Positions 3,779 to 62,044 of a stretch of 64,000 bases of DNA are shown in pieces. The number at the start of each line of letters is the position of its first letter. The stretch's first letter is position 1. The notes under the pieces are model-generated. The model was not told the origin of the DNA. It worked only from the letters and a program-made list of their open reading frames with translations, and ran no database searches. Position numbers and translations under genes: made by a program. Source of the DNA: Chitinophaga pinensis (GTDB taxonomy: Bacteria > Bacteroidota > Bacteroidia > 2-12-FULL-35-15); NCBI GenBank assembly GCA_945879015.1, contig CAMCUO010000009.1, positions 6,444 to 70,443 on the forward strand, read 5' to 3'.

Positions 3779-6280
3779 TTAAAAGGAAAACTTAAAAGAA
3801 GGTTTCACAATAAAGTAATAAACACCCGGATTGTAAACATCGGTTATTCGCCAGATAAAGTCGATTCTTGAAATTTTGAAAATGTTTTCAATCCCAAAGC
3901 CAACTTCATAATAAGGTTCATTTATTTTATTCAGATTTTCGGGAAACAGATAACGAGCATTGTAATTTGCATCACTTATCGTCCCGAAATACCCTTTAGC
4001 GAAAACAAAGTTCCGCCATTTTAATTTATTAATCAGGGGAATTCTATCTAACAACAGACCTTCGATATGTTGTTCCAAATGCACCGAAACATACTGATCG
4101 GAGGCGTACTCCAGAAAATTCATTAAATTAAAGGCATACTCATCCATAATAACGAGCTGATTTGCGAAAGGAAGATCCAAATACGGATAAGGAACCGTGT
4201 TGAATGTTTTACCTGCTTCAATATAATATTTAAAGTAGCCCAATTTCTGAGTTCTGATCTGCTGTTTAAAGGAGATCTTTAGTTTCTGGAAATTGAATTC
4301 TGATCCAAGGGTTTTATCCGCTAATTTCCACTGAACAGCTATGTCGGGAAATTTTTTAAAGGTGTTTTTATAATCGTCTTTATTATAAAAATTGCCATTC
4401 ACATCTTTGTTTTGCCAACTGTATTTTAAGGTAAGATCAATACCTGAAGTAAAATAATTCGAAGTACTATCCAGCTGATTGCTCTCATCCAGAGATTTAA
4501 AAAAACCATTATTTACTGGCGTTATAACAGAATTAAAATAATTTAGTTTAGTTGCAAGTCCGGTTGTCCAGTTATTTTCAAAATAAAGATTAAAATCCCT
4601 CACATAATTTTTGGAGACATTTGTTTGTCCAACCTGAATAAAAGAAGACAATACGTGATCCAATTCGATGTTATTAAAACTTCTGCTGAGTTGTTCAATA
4701 TCATCACGGTAATAAATTCCTAATTTGCTTTTTATTTTTTTTGTTCTGCCAAAATTAAATTCGGGTTTAATTTTATATTTCCATTTTTCATCCAATGTTC
4801 CATAAGCTACATATGTTGACAGTGAAAAAGGACCAGAGAGTTGGTCATTGGTTTTGAAACCCAACTTCATTCTTGATTTTTCGATATTGTTATAGCTGTA
4901 AAAGGAATATACATCGCCGATGTCAATTGACAGAATTGGATAATAACCTGTTGCAATTCCTTTAACAATATTTTTTCTCAATATAAATCGGGGATCATCC
5001 TCCAATTTTTCGGCCATTTTAAATACGCCTTTGTCCTGATCAGACAAATCAAAATGACGTGCTTGTTTCCAGTAATCTTCTGATTTGAGAGCTGAACTAT
5101 CCGATTCAACTACAATGCTGCTTCCTTTGAAGATCTTTTTAGGTAAAACAGTATCGATTTGATAATTTGTAAAGCTGGCATTTTTACGACCAAAAAAACC
5201 AGTCAGATCTGAGGAATTTTCTACCACCGTAAAGTCACCTATCACATCCGATTCGGTGAGCATCCAATGGGAAGAAGTCAACCGTTCATATTTTTGGTTG
5301 ATCCAGAAACTACGGACAAAATTAACATTGGCCATGATATCGAACCGAACAGTTATCTCTTTGAGAGCAGCATCCGCGGAATCAATGGTCATTTCTCCAA
5401 TGAAGGCAAGATCTCTTTTCTGCTTCGGCAAAAATGTAATTTTATATACTTTGTCTAAGCCTTTACCGAGACTGTCAGTTAAATAAAATTTATAATTGAA
5501 TTTATAATTATCATTTAACGGACTAGGAAAACTTTTATCTAAAATGGTAACATAATTGTCATAAAAATTGGGTGCCTGATATAGATCTTCCACAAACTTC
5601 ATGATCTTCGGCCCTTCCAAACCGGTTGTATTTACGGCAGTAACATAATCTTTCCTTTCGTTAGGGGAACTCTTATAATAATGTTCCACTACTTTTTCAA
5701 TGAGTAGTACTGGCAAGTAAGTGATTCCATCAGTAGTAGTATCGACATTATTCCAAATAAAATCAAAGGGGCGAAGTAAAATATTCTTCTTTATTTTATC
5801 TGTAAAATGATTCAGATCAAACCGAATTTTCGAATACTCTTCACAGAAATAGTTTACTTTATTATCCGGATTATTCTTTCCTTTATTATCGATAATTCTC
5901 CTAAGTACGCGCCAGGCAGGATTTTCACCAGGCCTTACAACAAACTCATTAAGTTGATAAAATTGCGGTGAAATTTCTACCGTTACTTTTTGACGTTGAT
6001 TAACTTTAAATCCAATCTTTTGAGTGTTATAACCTAAAGAAGAAATAATAAGGGAATCTTCTTTTAAATCAACTGTATTGATCGTAGCTTTGAAATATCC
6101 GGAAGTATCGCTTGTTGTACCTATTTGGGTTCCTTTAAAAAAAATGTGAACAAAAGGAATTGGTTCTTTGCTCCCCTTTTCTAAAATGAAACCTTCAACT
6201 GTGGTGGTCTGAGAATAACCAAACGAAACAATTGACAATAAAGCCACCAAAAAAAATAAACAGCGTTTAAGTAAGGTCAT
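3779..6280 (-). CDS. Large outer-membrane-type protein with N-terminal carboxypeptidase-regulatory-like domain (DUF5686-like family)
   Basis: 833 aa. It has a signal peptide (LFFLVALLSIVSFGYSQ) and a CarboxypepD_reg-like segment (VEGFILEKGSKEPIPFVHIFFKGTQIGTTSDTSGYF). The rest is long, aromatic-rich and predicted beta, ending in an aromatic residue (KPSFKFSF). The family assignment is from memory of similar ~830-aa Bacteroidota proteins. Confidence 0.65.
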   Translation of the reverse strand: MTLLKRCLFFLVALLSIVSFGYSQTTTVEGFILEKGSKEPIPFVHIFFKGTQIGTTSDTSGYFKATINTVDLKEDSLIISSLGYNTQKIGFKVNQRQKVTVEISPQFYQLNEFVVRPGENPAWRVLRRIIDNKGKNNPDNKVNYFCEEYSKIRFDLNHFTDKIKKNILLRPFDFIWNNVDTTTDGITYLPVLLIEKVVEHYYKSSPNERKDYVTAVNTTGLEGPKIMKFVEDLYQAPNFYDNYVTILDKSFPSPLNDNYKFNYKFYLTDSLGKGLDKVYKITFLPKQKRDLAFIGEMTIDSADAALKEITVRFDIMANVNFVRSFWINQKYERLTSSHWMLTESDVIGDFTVVENSSDLTGFFGRKNASFTNYQIDTVLPKKIFKGSSIVVESDSSALKSEDYWKQARHFDLSDQDKGVFKMAEKLEDDPRFILRKNIVKGIATGYYPILSIDIGDVYSFYSYNNIEKSRMKLGFKTNDQLSGPFSLSTYVAYGTLDEKWKYKIKPEFNFGRTKKIKSKLGIYYRDDIEQLSRSFNNIELDHVLSSFIQVGQTNVSKNYVRDFNLYFENNWTTGLATKLNYFNSVITPVNNGFFKSLDESNQLDSTSNYFTSGIDLTLKYSWQNKDVNGNFYNKDDYKNTFKKFPDIAVQWKLADKTLGSEFNFQKLKISFKQQIRTQKLGYFKYYIEAGKTFNTVPYPYLDLPFANQLVIMDEYAFNLMNFLEYASDQYVSVHLEQHIEGLLLDRIPLINKLKWRNFVFAKGYFGTISDANYNARYLFPENLNKINEPYYEVGFGIENIFKISRIDFIWRITDVYNPGVYYFIVKPSFKFSF

Positions 6281-59968: not shown

Positions 59969-60199
59969 TCAACTTTTGTTGAACACATAGAAAAAAACTC
60001 ATTCTTGTAGATACTTTTTCCACTCCTCCGATTCAGCAAACTTCTTTATTATTTGATTTCGATGTTGCAAAAAGCGTTTCATGTAATTTGTAAGGACTAA
60101 AAAATTAAAGTGCTATTAGATTTTATCAATTGTTAATCGAATTGTTTGCATTTTTAATTCGTTTTTAATCTGCTAAATTTGAATCTTATAAAACAAAAA

Positions 60200-60238
60200 C
60201 GGTATCAAAACCAGAATTTGGCTGAGATACCGTTTTTG
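60200..60238. terminator. Possible terminator hairpin in the ppx / anti-sigma-like convergent spacer
   Basis: Stem CGGTATC / GATACCG with a large 19-nt loop, flanked by A-run and T-run. Confidence 0.35.
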
Positions 60239-60426
60239 TTTTAATTCCTATTGGAGTAGCAACAGGTTTCAAAATATTTTAAAAAATTGGAGACACCGGC
60301 AACAAAAATCGCGTATGTAGTGGTGGTAGAGCTAAAAACAGGATTAATATTTTTGAATTTCTTTTTGTTTGACGTTGGACCAAACTAAAAAAACTCTTCC
60401 CGATGCCCCAATTTTATTTTGCTTTT

Positions 60427-61383
60427 CTATCTTGATAAATTAATTTTTCCTTTTTTCTCATAGGTCTTTCCATCCTTTCCGATGGCAGAAACGATGTAAT
60501 AATAAATTCCTTCTTGTGCTTTTTTACCATTTGGTGTTTTGCCATCCCACTTTCCATCTGTCCCAGAATAATCATAAACTACGTTTGCATTTTTGTCCAC
60601 AATCATAATGGTATATCTTTCTACGTTTACACGATTAAAAACAAATAAATCATCTTTCCCATCTCCATTTGGAGAAAATTCTGACGGAGTAGTAATAGAT
60701 GAATTTGCTAAGGCTTCTACTTTAATACTATCAACCGCTGTTTTTCCATCTGAGCTTATTGAAGTAAGGGTAATGGTATAAATTCCTGGCTCATCAAAAT
60801 ATTTTACTGGTTCAGCACCTGTCATTGGTTTTGTTCCATCATTAAATGTCCATTTGTTTATTTTTCCGCTTCCTAAATTTGAAAGACTAATAATCAAAGG
60901 AACGGCTCCACCAACACAACTAGAAGAAATAGAAGCAATACGATTATCTGATATTAATGCTTCAATCGCTTTTTTGTCTTTTTTAATTACAGGTATTTTA
61001 ATTGGTACTATTTCATTCTTAACAACTGCCGGAGTTTCTTTTACTACAGCTTTTTCAGGTGTTAAAAATAATTTTATTTCATCCGCACTCGGTTTCACTA
61101 CTTCAGATACAACTTTTAGCTGAACTACTTTTTTAGGTTCTGCTGTTTTTGTTTCTGTTTTTGTTCCATTCATCACAAATACTGTAGCAATAATAGCAGC
61201 AGCAGAAGACACGATTGAAATAACGGCGCTTGAACCAAGTTTGTTTAAAAGCATTTTGCCTAACAACCCTAAGCTAAAACCTTTCAATGCGGTTTGAACG
61301 TTTTTCCAAACAGTTGGGTTAACGTCCGCCTCAAAGTTTTCAAAGGACTCTTTAAACAAATCTTCTAAATTATCTTTCTTCAT
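60427..61383 (-). CDS. Anti-sigma-like single-pass membrane protein with PKD-like domain and T9SS type B (CHU_C / gliding-associated) C-terminal sorting domain
   Basis: The N-terminus MKKDNLEDLFKESFENFEADVNPTVWKNV is typical of ORFs downstream of Bacteroidota ECF sigmas. TM at SSAVISIVSSAAAIIATVFVM. PKD-like WTFNDGTKPMTGAEPVKYFDEPGIYTITLTSISSDGK. C-terminus FSPNGDGKDDLFVFNRVNVERYTIMIVDKNANVVYDY....WDGKTPNGKKAQEGIYYYIVSAIGKDGKTYEKKGKINLSR. Confidence 0.75.
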   Translation of the reverse strand: MKKDNLEDLFKESFENFEADVNPTVWKNVQTALKGFSLGLLGKMLLNKLGSSAVISIVSSAAAIIATVFVMNGTKTETKTAEPKKVVQLKVVSEVVKPSADEIKLFLTPEKAVVKETPAVVKNEIVPIKIPVIKKDKKAIEALISDNRIASISSSCVGGAVPLIISLSNLGSGKINKWTFNDGTKPMTGAEPVKYFDEPGIYTITLTSISSDGKTAVDSIKVEALANSSITTPSEFSPNGDGKDDLFVFNRVNVERYTIMIVDKNANVVYDYSGTDGKWDGKTPNGKKAQEGIYYYIVSAIGKDGKTYEKKGKINLSR

Positions 61384-61391
61384 TTTTTGTA

Positions 61392-61919
61392 TTATCTATC
61401 TATTGGTATAATTTTCTGTAAATGTGCTTTTGCCCTTGAGTATTGTGATTTAGAAGTGCCTTCTGAAATATTAAGCATTTCTCCTATCTCTTTATGTGAA
61501 TAACCCTCAATAGCATAAAGGTTAAAAACCGTTTTAAATCCAACAGGTAGTGATTGTATAATCTTTAAAAGATCCTTGGTCGCAAAACTGTCGTTTGTAT
61601 GTATATTAGATGGAAGCATAAATTCTACACTATCCAGCTCAATGTTTTGTTTTAATTTTTTGTTTTTACGAATATTGGTAAGTGCTGTGTTTACCATAAT
61701 CTTTCTAACCCAACCTTCTAAAGAACCTGTCCCTTTAAAGGACTCAATATTTTCAAAAATGCTAATAAATGCATTTTGTACTACATCTTCTGCTTCTTCT
61801 GTACTATCGCAATATCTTAGGCAAACACCCATCATCTTGCGAGAGAATTTTTCGTACAAGTTCTTCTGAGCAATTGCATTCTTATCGATGCACCCTTTTA
61901 CTATTTGCTCATCAGTCAT
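61392..61919 (-). CDS. ECF-type RNA polymerase sigma-70 factor
   Basis: 175 aa. Region 2 (EDVVQNAFISIFENIESF) and region 4 HTH (EGYSHKEIGEMLNISEGTSKSQYSRAK). Confidence 0.9.
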   Translation of the reverse strand: MTDEQIVKGCIDKNAIAQKNLYEKFSRKMMGVCLRYCDSTEEAEDVVQNAFISIFENIESFKGTGSLEGWVRKIMVNTALTNIRKNKKLKQNIELDSVEFMLPSNIHTNDSFATKDLLKIIQSLPVGFKTVFNLYAIEGYSHKEIGEMLNISEGTSKSQYSRAKAHLQKIIPIDR

Positions 61920-62044
61920 AATCGATTTCTAGTGTATAGACGCAAAGTTGCATTATTTGGTTGCATGGATAATGTTTTTTTTAGTTTTTATCAACAAATC
62001 TTTATTTATCCATAAATCAATAGCACTTTTGGGGTATGGCAAAG

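Follow-up and report, generated by a model that had tools for sequence, protein, structure and literature searches.

The closest described counterparts of the gene pair studied here are the Dma systems of Bacteroidota (short for dual membrane-spanning anti-sigma), whose members include Dma1/Das1 (BT_4721/BT_4720) and Dma2/Das2 of Bacteroides thetaiotaomicron and Reo/EcfO of B. fragilis (Pardue et al. 2024, PMC10927553). Dma1 spans both membranes, and a fragment consisting of its residues 1-40 pulled down the Das1 sigma factor. NigD-like proteins belong to the Dma1 regulon, which also has an effect on vesiculation, and Dma proteins are encoded beside sigma factors of the ECF21 type (PMC10927553).

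The window analysed here, a stretch of 64,000 nucleotides, contains an ECF sigma factor gene on the minus strand (61392-61919) that encodes a protein of 175 aa. Both the length of this protein and its sigma-2/sigma-4 domain content are those of ECF (group IV) sigma-70 factors (~170-200 aa), with scores of 56.8 bits for Sigma70_r2, 52.5 bits for Sigma70_r4_2 and 96.5 bits for TIGR02937 (cut-off 42.9). NCBIfam gave no assignment to a specific ECF group, and no model in the library separates ECF21. The sigma stop codon is followed after a gap of 8 nt (61384-61391) by the gene for an anti-sigma-like partner of 318 aa (60427-61383, minus strand, stop codon included), in agreement with the spacing and the reading frames stated in the original prediction. 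The neighbours of the pair are rnr and ppx/ppk, and no TonB-dependent transducer is encoded beside it. Between the convergent anti-sigma and ppx genes we read from the sequence a 17-bp perfect inverted repeat (AAAACAAAAACGGTATC ... GATACCGTTTTTGTTTT; 60190-60242, unstranded), which is probably a bidirectional terminator; it was missing from a simple terminator scan because its 19-nt loop exceeds the limit of that scan.

The partner, all parts of which are encoded on the minus strand, begins with a cytoplasmic motif at residues 1-34 (MKKDNLEDLFKESFENFEADVNPTVWKNVQTALK; 61282-61383), which carries a net charge of -2 and is the predicted sigma-binding region on the evidence of conservation, profile alignment (hhalign) and model confidence (pLDDT). 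About 50 residues precede the hydrophobic segment, which forms a single transmembrane helix at residues 51-71 (61171-61233); the Kyte-Doolittle hydropathy in a 19-residue window peaks at 2.39 at residues 53-71, and the AlphaFold model contains a helix at residues 52-71. Hydropathy and conservation gave no cleavable Sec signal peptide, the hydrophobic stretch beginning only at residue 51. The helix is followed by a low-complexity linker rich in K, V, E and I (residues 72-150; 60934-61170; K 15, V 12, E 8, I 8, A 7, T 6, P 6), a predicted periplasm-spanning tether that is weakly conserved and variable in length across the partner family. When the partner was modelled alone, pLDDT was below 50 over residues 1-135. 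A PKD-type Ig-like domain occupies approximately residues 151-224 (60712-60933), with a PKD_4 score of 36.2 bits at residues 154-221 and a confident beta-sandwich in the AlphaFold model. At the C-terminus lies a T9SS sorting-type domain of type B without the (N/D)RWG motif (residues 231-318; 60430-60693), which matches CHU_C with 56.4 bits (cut-off 27) at residues 232-315 and TIGR04131 only marginally, with 36.0 bits against a cut-off of 35, at residues 231-317; FlgD_ig also matches this domain, weakly. A Foldseek search with the full-length model returned tandem Ig/FnIII-type folds, which are generic matches only. We found no Pfam match to FecR or DUF4974 in the partner and no OMP_b-brl_2 barrel, the C-terminal part being accounted for by PKD_4 and CHU_C. 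Overall, the original prediction had read the anatomy correctly: it described a sigma/anti-sigma-type pair whose partner has an uncleaved-looking transmembrane anchor far from the N-terminus, a PKD-like domain and a type B C-terminal domain, and all of the peptide motifs that it cited for the partner are found in the sequence.

Within the partner family, conservation is highest in the N-terminal motif. Among 16 sequences reaching down to 47% identity, residues D8, F10, K11, F14, E18, V21, P23, W26, K27 and N28 are invariant, and conservation of this kind at the N-terminus is the opposite of the pattern of a signal peptide. In AlphaFold models, partner residues 4-33 had pLDDT values of 84-94 when joined to the sigma factor and of 37-42 when the partner was modelled alone. 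The joined model was the natural in-frame sigma-stop-partner read-through of locus L002, a single chain for which the alignment consisted of eight paired (fused) rows plus sigma-only rows and for which pLDDT served as the readout. The rise in pLDDT is a hint that the N-terminus may bind the sigma factor. The statement that this motif is typical of Bacteroidota sigma partners held up well, because in 15 of 15 weak phylum-wide matches the open reading frame with the motif lies directly after a related ECF sigma gene. A narrow HMM detected no paralogue of the partner N-terminus in the same genome. A separate protein with 20 apparent repeats of the motif turned out to be a spurious match, namely an unrelated repetitive C-type-lectin protein.

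The relationship to the Dma systems becomes visible through more distant partners of related sigma factors, which end in an OMP_b-brl_2 barrel (PF13568) and so fit the published architecture of Dma1. The N-terminal profiles of the partners that end in CHU_C and of those that end in a barrel aligned in hhalign with 98.5% probability (E=1.5e-15, residues 3-34), and in the sigma tree the sigma factors of both kinds of partner group together, apart from 10 other ECF sigma factors of the genome (support 83/90). NF058625 scored 62-102 bits, under its cut-off of 130, with all sigma factors tested, including those of the barrel-type partners. The link to Dma runs through these barrel-type homologues, which fit the published description, and not through the sequence of B. 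thetaiotaomicron Dma1 itself. Like Dma, the pair has a partner gene directly after a related ECF sigma gene, a short cytoplasmic N-terminal motif that is homologous by way of the barrel-type proteins, one inner-membrane helix with a long disordered periplasmic linker behind it (as judged by hydropathy, composition and pLDDT) and a C-terminal module of a kind normally delivered to the outer membrane. The module itself differs, being an eight-stranded OMP_b-brl_2 barrel in Dma and a PKD domain with a type B T9SS sorting-type domain here; the predicted regulon differs as well, consisting of T9SS adhesin-like cargo here as opposed to the Dma1 regulon with its NigD-like proteins and its effect on vesiculation. 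The original prediction had regarded an inner-membrane anchor and an outer-membrane address on one chain as a topological conflict unless the periplasmic part is cleaved off, and had missed a published precedent, the Dma family, in which an N-terminus of this type is joined to a barrel in the outer membrane (PMC10927553).

The pairing is strongly conserved. The sigma gene lies directly upstream of the partner gene in 37 of 37 related loci from metagenome-assembled genomes (MAGs), across which the sigma factor is 75-98% and the partner 34-83% identical, and in one locus the same pairing stands in an unrelated genomic context. A second match resembling the anti-sigma factor occurs a few kb downstream of the partner in 18 related loci. 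In the eight related loci inspected, this second match is the gene directly after the anti-sigma gene, and it encodes a CHU_C (type B) cargo protein of 1097-1267 aa. The family is large: a search with the N-terminal module among 1.84 billion proteins yielded 484 clusters at 50% identity, and among the 89 remote members with a length of 200 aa or more, CHU_C forms the end of 80. Its members live mostly in uncultured freshwater and soil Bacteroidota. Within the same genome, the 12 other ECF partners carry TPR, TonB_C+zf-HC2, FGE-sulfatase-like or no known domains, and none of these 12 has a sorting domain.

Upstream of the sigma gene we identified an ECF-type promoter, TGCAAC-N17-CGTCTA (61937-61965, minus strand; -35 at 61960-61965 and -10 at 61937-61942), which ends 17 nt ahead of the sigma ATG. 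The pattern TGCAAC-N17-C[AG]TCTA is found upstream of the sigma gene in nearly all of the 37 related loci that hold the region, and the promoter is still recognisable in five distant loci, including the one in an unrelated context. With its AAC-type -35 and CGT-type -10 elements, it is predicted to be of the autoregulatory type. We then searched this genome for the motif within 300 nt upstream of genes on the same strand. The motif precedes 16 genes, including the sigma gene, seven CHU_C genes and two genes with type A C-terminal domains (CTDs), and another motif-bearing gene stands first in the operon that contains an eighth CHU_C gene. Its occurrence before 7 of the 41 CHU_C genes of the genome corresponds to an odds ratio of 58 (P=1.5e-9), and type B genes are favoured over type A genes (7/40 versus 2/123, P=8e-4). 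The 17-nt spacer gave all 16 upstream sites, while each of six other spacers gave 0. In a sister species, the motif stands at 9 of 64 CHU_C genes, where 0.22 would be expected (P≈2e-12); at likely orthologous genes the -35 and -10 elements are kept and the spacer sequences differ. In a genome from a different family, it stands at 2 of 27 CHU_C genes (0.1 expected). A PKD+CHU_C end, as in the anti-sigma tail, is present in five of the eight target cargo proteins. These results suggest that the regulon of the sigma factor comprises its own operon and about ten secreted adhesin-like T9SS cargo genes, a prediction that rests on the motif scan and that takes in no more than roughly one in five type B cargo genes. 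Two other ECF sigma factors of the genome have similar promoters, GGCAAC-N16-CGTCT and TGTAAC-N16-CGTCT, so that cross-recognition is possible. The idea, put forward originally, that the circuit is coupled to the T9SS gains support that is real but indirect from the motif enrichment before type B cargo genes, and likewise from the type B cargo gene that directly follows the anti-sigma gene in the inspected loci.

On the machinery side of the T9SS, the genome has SprA and 16 PorP/SprF proteins; more than 160 of its proteins have sorting domains, with 41 domains of type B and approximately 123 of type A. A cognate PorP/SprF gene close to type B cargo is frequent but not obligatory. The PorP/SprF genes of this genome lie mostly directly after cargo genes, and none of the 16 is near the pair on its contig. 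Among the other CHU_C proteins of the genome, all those whose 5' ends are intact have a classical signal peptide in the first 30 residues. Where cargo domains have [ND]RWG, the partner reads VDKNAN. Exact RWG is present in 32 of the 41 CHU_C domains of the genome, and five more have the near variants RYG, REG, RLG, NWG and RIG; within the partner family, (N/D)RWG occurs in none of the 16 close members and in 5 of the 68 remote ones. The original prediction had overlooked that the sorting domain is an RWG-less variant. Because this motif is absent and the TIGR04131 score is marginal, recognition of the tail by the T9SS is possibly nil.

On balance, and with slightly better than even confidence, we favour the interpretation that the partner is a Dma-like anti-sigma factor in which the barrel is replaced by a T9SS adhesin C-terminal module and which couples adhesin transcription to the status of the T9SS. 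Sequence analysis establishes how the partner is built, that its N-terminus is homologous to that of barrel-type partners, that the pairing is conserved and that the promoter motif is enriched. We infer sigma binding, the regulon and, above all, the coupling of cargo transcription to T9SS status, including its sign. In the proposed mechanism, the cytoplasmic N-terminus of ~35 residues would hold the sigma factor at the inner membrane, and the transmembrane helix with the disordered tether of ~80 residues would carry the PKD+CTD module across the periplasm. The sigma factor would transcribe its own operon from TGCAAC-N17-CGTCTA together with about ten T9SS cargo genes, mostly for proteins with PKD and a type B CTD. 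The cargo-mimic tail may report the state of the type B T9SS branch, whether of the translocon, the shuttle or a PorP/SprF-type receptor, and once the tail is engaged, the anti-sigma factor would undergo regulated proteolysis and the sigma factor would be set free, so that cargo synthesis would track secretion capacity. With a mimic of the cargo tag on the inhibitor and the motif of the sigma factor before adhesin genes, adhesin output is probably matched to the state of the T9SS. A more specific version, which is possible although we regard it as doubtful, is that the anti-sigma factor serves as a tethered pseudo-substrate checkpoint of the type B branch and thus as a membrane-anchored counterpart of FlgM. 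An assembled, free translocon or PorP/SprF-type receptor would then seize or pull the RWG-less sorting domain, and the stretched tether would be cut, followed by intramembrane proteolysis and activation of the PKD+type B adhesin genes by the sigma factor.

In a rather unlikely alternative, the partner is a true anti-sigma factor and its PKD+CHU_C-like tail is a periplasmic Ig-type sensor never touched by the T9SS. Such a sensor might respond, for example, to a chaperone, a component of the envelope or cargo that has not been secreted, and its connection with the cargo genes would then be feedback or stress control of the ordinary sort. The absence of (N/D)RWG from 16/16 close and 63/68 remote family members, set against its presence in most cargo domains, is in line with this view, as are the marginal TIGR04131 score, the weak FlgD_ig match, and the lack of a Sec signal peptide in the partner and of an adjacent PorP/SprF gene. 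However, the type B hallmarks FSPNGDG..D, WDG and G.Y.Y are invariant across the partner family, and 80/89 remote relatives have retained CHU_C and not another Ig-like domain. Furthermore, an outer-membrane barrel forms the C-terminal end of the sister architecture, which suggests that targeting of the C-terminus to the outer membrane is a conserved principle.

If the tail does leave the periplasm, the protein could be a trans-envelope tether, its exported CTD held at the surface by a PorP/SprF-type protein while its N-terminus remains in the inner membrane; it would then sense surface contact, gliding pull or perturbation of the outer membrane and not secretion capacity. Type B cargo is reported to remain bound to PorP-like proteins at the cell surface, the genome has 16 PorP/SprF genes, and the tether offers ~80 disordered residues. 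Dma1 provides an example of a protein that spans both membranes (PMC10927553). We nevertheless judge this reading improbable: the threading of an inner-membrane-anchored chain through the translocon has no known T9SS precedent, the tether and the folded PKD domain leave little length for the periplasm plus the outer membrane, and an RWG-less domain may be export-incompetent. The C-terminal half of the partner resembles the end of a cargo protein, as would be the case if it were ordinary secreted T9SS cargo next to a sigma gene, with the hydrophobic segment as its cleaved signal peptide. We give this very little credence, however, since a cleaved signal peptide is contradicted by the position of the segment, which starts at residue 51 behind an acidic stretch where conservation in the protein is highest, and since the other CHU_C proteins of the genome with intact 5' ends carry theirs within 30 residues. 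In addition, the N-terminus is homologous to that of the Dma-like barrel-type partners, with Dma1(1-40) binding its own sigma factor (PMC10927553), and the adjacency to a sigma gene holds in 37/37 close and 15/15 distant loci.

In the literature searched, we found no published description of an anti-sigma family with a PKD+CHU_C tail, and the main text of the ECF classification paper (PMC7826278) does not describe the sigma/PKD+CHU_C architecture. New here is the presence of the predicted promoter motif of the sigma factor before type B cargo genes. The locus bears on the way in which Bacteroidota keep the production of their very large T9SS adhesins in step with secretion capacity; the T9SS regulation known so far (PorXY-SigP, PorA) has to do with machinery genes in a single pathogen. 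It offers a simple testable circuit, consisting of a sigma factor, an inhibitor with the address tag of the cargo and a recognisable promoter before the cargo genes, and it belongs to an anti-sigma family of hundreds of 50%-identity clusters. The recently described Dma principle, a physical link between an anti-sigma factor and the outer membrane, would be extended to a second outer-membrane delivery pathway, which suggests a general design. The pseudo-substrate checkpoint would, if true, form with the Dma proteins that end in a barrel a general principle of Bacteroidota, in which anti-sigma factors with a surrogate client of BAM or of the T9SS report on the function of the respective pathway.

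In the flagellar-assembly checkpoint formed by FlgM and sigma-28, FlgM is soluble and itself exported. The likeness to the present locus is one of concept only, in that the anti-sigma factor carries an export signal of the machine that exports the products of the regulon; late-gene expression follows the competence of the machine in the flagellar case, and there is no sequence relationship between FlgM and the partner. Unlike in FlgM, the predicted sigma-binding part here is anchored in the inner membrane, and release of the sigma factor would therefore need proteolysis and not export. The FecI/FecR/FecA system and the trios of ECF sigma factor, anti-sigma factor and SusC-like protein in Bacteroidota resemble the proposed circuit in that an inner-membrane anti-sigma factor extends through the periplasm to read an outer-membrane machine and the ECF sigma factor is released by proteolysis; the partner described here, however, is without a FecR domain and without a TonB-dependent transducer, and the T9SS, or else a protein of the PorP/SprF type, would serve as its counterpart on the outer side. 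In Porphyromonas gingivalis, the PorA-PorY/PorX-SigP pathway likewise has a protein with a T9SS CTD that feeds back on an ECF sigma factor tied to type IX secretion, and the study of this pathway reports no anti-sigma factor for SigP (PMC7712824). Unlike the partner, PorA is free cargo at the cell surface and works by way of a two-component system, and SigP controls the T9SS machinery genes (PMC7712824), whereas the predicted targets of the sigma factor described here are cargo genes.

Two ORFs had been described in the original prediction, and both are present as stated on the minus strand: an ECF sigma gene (61392-61919, 175 aa, from ORF reading and domain matches) and, 3' of it after an 8-nt gap, a gene for a 318-aa partner (60427-61383). 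The sigma contains Sigma70_r2 and Sigma70_r4_2 domains and scored 96.5 bits with TIGR02937. In the partner, a PKD_4 domain (36.2 bits, residues 154-221) precedes a CHU_C type B sorting domain (56.4 bits against a cut-off of 27, residues 232-315). Scoring with TIGR04131, proposed in the original prediction, gave a match at residues 231-317 that barely passed (36.0 bits, cut-off 35). An inverted repeat (60190-60242) with perfect 17-bp arms, a 19-nt loop and flanking A and T runs separates the convergent ppx and anti-sigma genes; its sequence makes it a likely bidirectional terminator, and it was absent from the output of a simple terminator scan.

The partner shows a single clear membrane helix (Kyte-Doolittle, 19-residue window), which peaks at 2.39 at residues 53-71 and is preceded by about 50 residues, with a net charge of −2 in residues 1-34. 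The linker that follows, to about residue 150, is rich in K, V, E, I, A, T and P. AlphaFold, run with a 16-row alignment, gave confident PKD and C-terminal beta-sandwiches and low confidence for residues 1-135, with helices predicted at 7-15, 23-34, 38-48 and 52-71. Across aligned sequences of as little as 47% identity, no part of the protein is as well conserved as the N-terminal motif, in which D8, F10, K11, F14, E18, V21, P23, W26, K27 and N28 are invariant. The hydrophobic segment begins at residue 51; elsewhere in the genome holding the window (G000), the remaining CHU_C proteins with intact 5' ends open with a classical signal peptide. The segment is thus predicted to be an anchor and not a signal peptide, and the uncleaved helix proposed originally is supported by the hydropathy, the late start of the segment and the conserved motif ahead of it. 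The reading of the partner as an ordinary T9SS cargo is excluded by sequence.

The pairing of the two genes is conserved. A sigma gene lies directly 5' of the partner gene in all 37 related loci, which come from uncultured Bacteroidota MAGs, and rnr is divergent in those with enough flank (full length in 28 of them). Across these loci identity is 75-98% for the sigma and 34-83% for the partner, and the gene of a much more distant member, P0149, follows a sigma of 55% identity and has other genes around it. A search of 1.84 billion representative proteins with a 76-position profile covering the N-terminus and helix matched 484 proteins at E ≤ 0.001. The domain survey took 89 of the listed matches of at least 200 aa, comprising 88 remote ones (at most 63 bits) and one spurious one (P0144, 99 bits). 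CHU_C is C-terminal in 80 of the 89, about half with PKD as well. The architecture therefore belongs to an old, large family rather than to a single fusion. Of the 13 ECF sigmas encoded by G000, most are followed by a single-pass partner; among these partners, only that in the window carries a sorting domain.

That sorting domain is a variant. The exact sequence RWG occurs in 32 of the 41 CHU_C domains of G000 and a near variant in five others; the partner has VDKNAN at this position. R[WYF]G was found there in none of 16 close family members and in 5 of 68 remote ones, while the type B hallmarks FSPNGDG..D, WDG and G.Y.Y are invariant across the family. The T9SS machinery of G000 includes SprA and 16 PorP/SprF genes, most beside cargo genes; none of the 16 is at the sigma/partner locus.

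The motif TGCAAC-N17-C[AG]TCTA lies 5' of the sigma gene in almost all related loci in which the region is present, and also in the distant loci L038, L050, L049, L046 and L047. In the window it occupies 61937-61965 on the minus strand, ending 17 nt ahead of the sigma ATG, and has the form of a classical ECF-type promoter, presumably an autoregulatory one. When the 3.1-Mb G000 genome was scanned for TGCAAC-N17-C[AG]TC[TA] up to 300 nt upstream on the same strand, 16 genes were found; the six spacer lengths 14-16 and 18-20 gave no upstream site. The 16 include the sigma gene itself, seven of the 41 CHU_C genes (Fisher odds ratio 58, P=1.5e-9), a small gene opening the operon of an eighth CHU_C gene, two genes for type A sorting domains, and five others, three of which encode small secreted proteins. 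The motif is commoner at type B than at type A genes (7/40 vs 2/123, P=8e-4). It lies near the start of 9 of 64 CHU_C genes in the sister species G363 (0.22 expected, P ~2e-12), where both hexamers are kept and the spacers differ at likely orthologous genes. In G099, a genome from another family that likewise has a partner ending in CHU_C, it lies at 2 of 27 (0.1 expected, P=0.005). The predicted targets are adhesin-like proteins of 650-1650 aa, and five of eight share the module of the anti-sigma tail, ending in PKD then CHU_C. Two other ECF sigmas of G000 have similar promoters with 16-nt spacers, and we therefore assign the TGCAAC-N17 sites to the window sigma by inference. As a sequence-based prediction, it is firm that a subset of the T9SS adhesin genes is marked by the motif, and the predicted regulon of this sigma is a new result. 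Inside genes of G000, TGCAAC-Nx-C[AG]TC[TA] is frequent at spacers of 14 (16 sites), 17 (26) and 20 (20), with 3-8 at other spacers; these copies possibly come from repeated coding sequence in adhesin genes.

A second match to the anti-sigma query lies a few kb downstream in 18 related loci. In all eight inspected it corresponds to a gene for a secreted CHU_C cargo protein of 1097-1267 aa, on the same strand directly after the anti-sigma gene (L001:5231-8533; L005:5170-8544; L011:5278-8592; L012:5220-8966; L017:5051-8821; L022:5242-8535; L027:5462-9265; L034:5454-8936). No separate TGCAAC-N17 site was found for the cargo gene in these eight loci, and it is therefore probably co-transcribed with the anti-sigma gene. 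It is missing at that position in the window, where ppx is found instead. C21_3796_7134, located elsewhere, has its own TGCAAC-N17 site and an N-terminus that resembles those of the downstream cargo proteins (by eye, unaligned). In L027, a 135-aa ORF between the anti-sigma and cargo genes (4986-5393) encodes little beyond a signal peptide and a CHU_C-like domain that shares 47% identity with the anti-sigma tail.

In eight loci the partner start shares its reading frame with the sigma stop codon, and reading them with NCBI table 6 yields a natural single-chain fusion. For one of them, L002, we folded the sigma, four residues (the read-through stop and three codons) and partner residues 1-85, using an alignment of 8 fused and 42 sigma-only rows. 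Partner residues 4-33 reached a pLDDT of 84-94 (pTM 0.70), compared with only 37-42 when the partner was folded alone (16 rows). This rise in the model hints at folding of the N-terminus upon binding to sigma.

The anti-sigma tail would signal the status of the type B branch of secretion, and sigma would be freed by proteolysis. Positive coupling, in which engagement of the tail would free sigma, is favoured because of the analogy with FlgM. Two main rivals stand beside the reading of the tail as a reporter of secretion: the tail may be a sensor domain independent of the T9SS, or the partner may truly span the envelope as a tether and sense surface events. Full-text literature searches turned up no paper in which an anti-sigma factor carries a T9SS sorting domain.

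Other anti-sigma variants were seen. L064, a locus elsewhere in G000 (C104:1400-4500), has on the minus strand a sigma gene (2331-2897) of the same clade as the window sigma in the tree, a gene for a 226-aa single-pass partner (1661-2341) that has a similar N-terminal motif with a W and lacks a folded C-terminal domain, and, about 480 nt after it, a gene for a PorP/SprF-family outer-membrane barrel (PorP_SprF, 215-1177). Its sigma promoter reads GGCAAC-N16-CGTCTT. L064 may be a "split" relative of the CTD-type systems and of the Dma proteins, the anti-sigma factors of Bacteroidota that span two membranes. P0147 (597 aa, with a C-terminal outer-membrane barrel) and P0212 (239 aa), both from the profile search, have 4-5 tandem cytoplasmic motifs ahead of the membrane helix, e.g. 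IDSLFKNGLKNHEEEISPSVWLNIAQKLD, and these repeats suggest that several sigma molecules may bind to a single anti-sigma factor. Another ECF partner of G000, outside the window (C65:9056-10564, minus strand), has a zf-HC2 anti-sigma motif, a single membrane helix, a long acidic linker and a TonB_C domain, and is a further anti-sigma with a C-terminal domain that normally docks on outer-membrane proteins.

In a phylum-wide sample of 400 genomes, all 15 weak matches to the N-terminal motif were ORFs starting right after a sigma 39-47% identical to that of the window. Most of these partners have 430-540 aa and, after a single helix near residue 40-50, a long stretch of low complexity that leads to a C-terminal OMP_b-brl_2 barrel; in L050 the C-terminal domain is CHU_C. 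Dma1 of B. thetaiotaomicron is an OMP_b-brl_2 protein encoded beside the ECF21 sigma Das1, with a helix in the inner membrane, a long disordered stretch in the periplasm and a barrel in the outer membrane, and its first 40 residues pull down Das1 (Pardue et al., PMC10927553). Residues 3-34 of the window partner matched the N-termini of the barrel-type partners in a profile-profile comparison (98.5% probability, E=1.5e-15). In a maximum-likelihood tree the sigmas of barrel-type and CHU_C-type partners form one group (support 83/90), with 10 of the 11 other G000 ECF sigmas included falling outside it (of 12, one near-duplicate was omitted); no library model separated this group. The window partner therefore shares the predicted sigma-binding half of Dma proteins. 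The sequence analysis firmly points to a Dma-like pair of a sigma and a predicted anti-sigma factor, with a cargo-type PKD and type B module in place of the barrel. The partner differs from Dma proteins in being without their defining C-terminal barrel, whereas the N-terminal half is common to both, as judged through barrel-type homologues that fit the description of Dma1.
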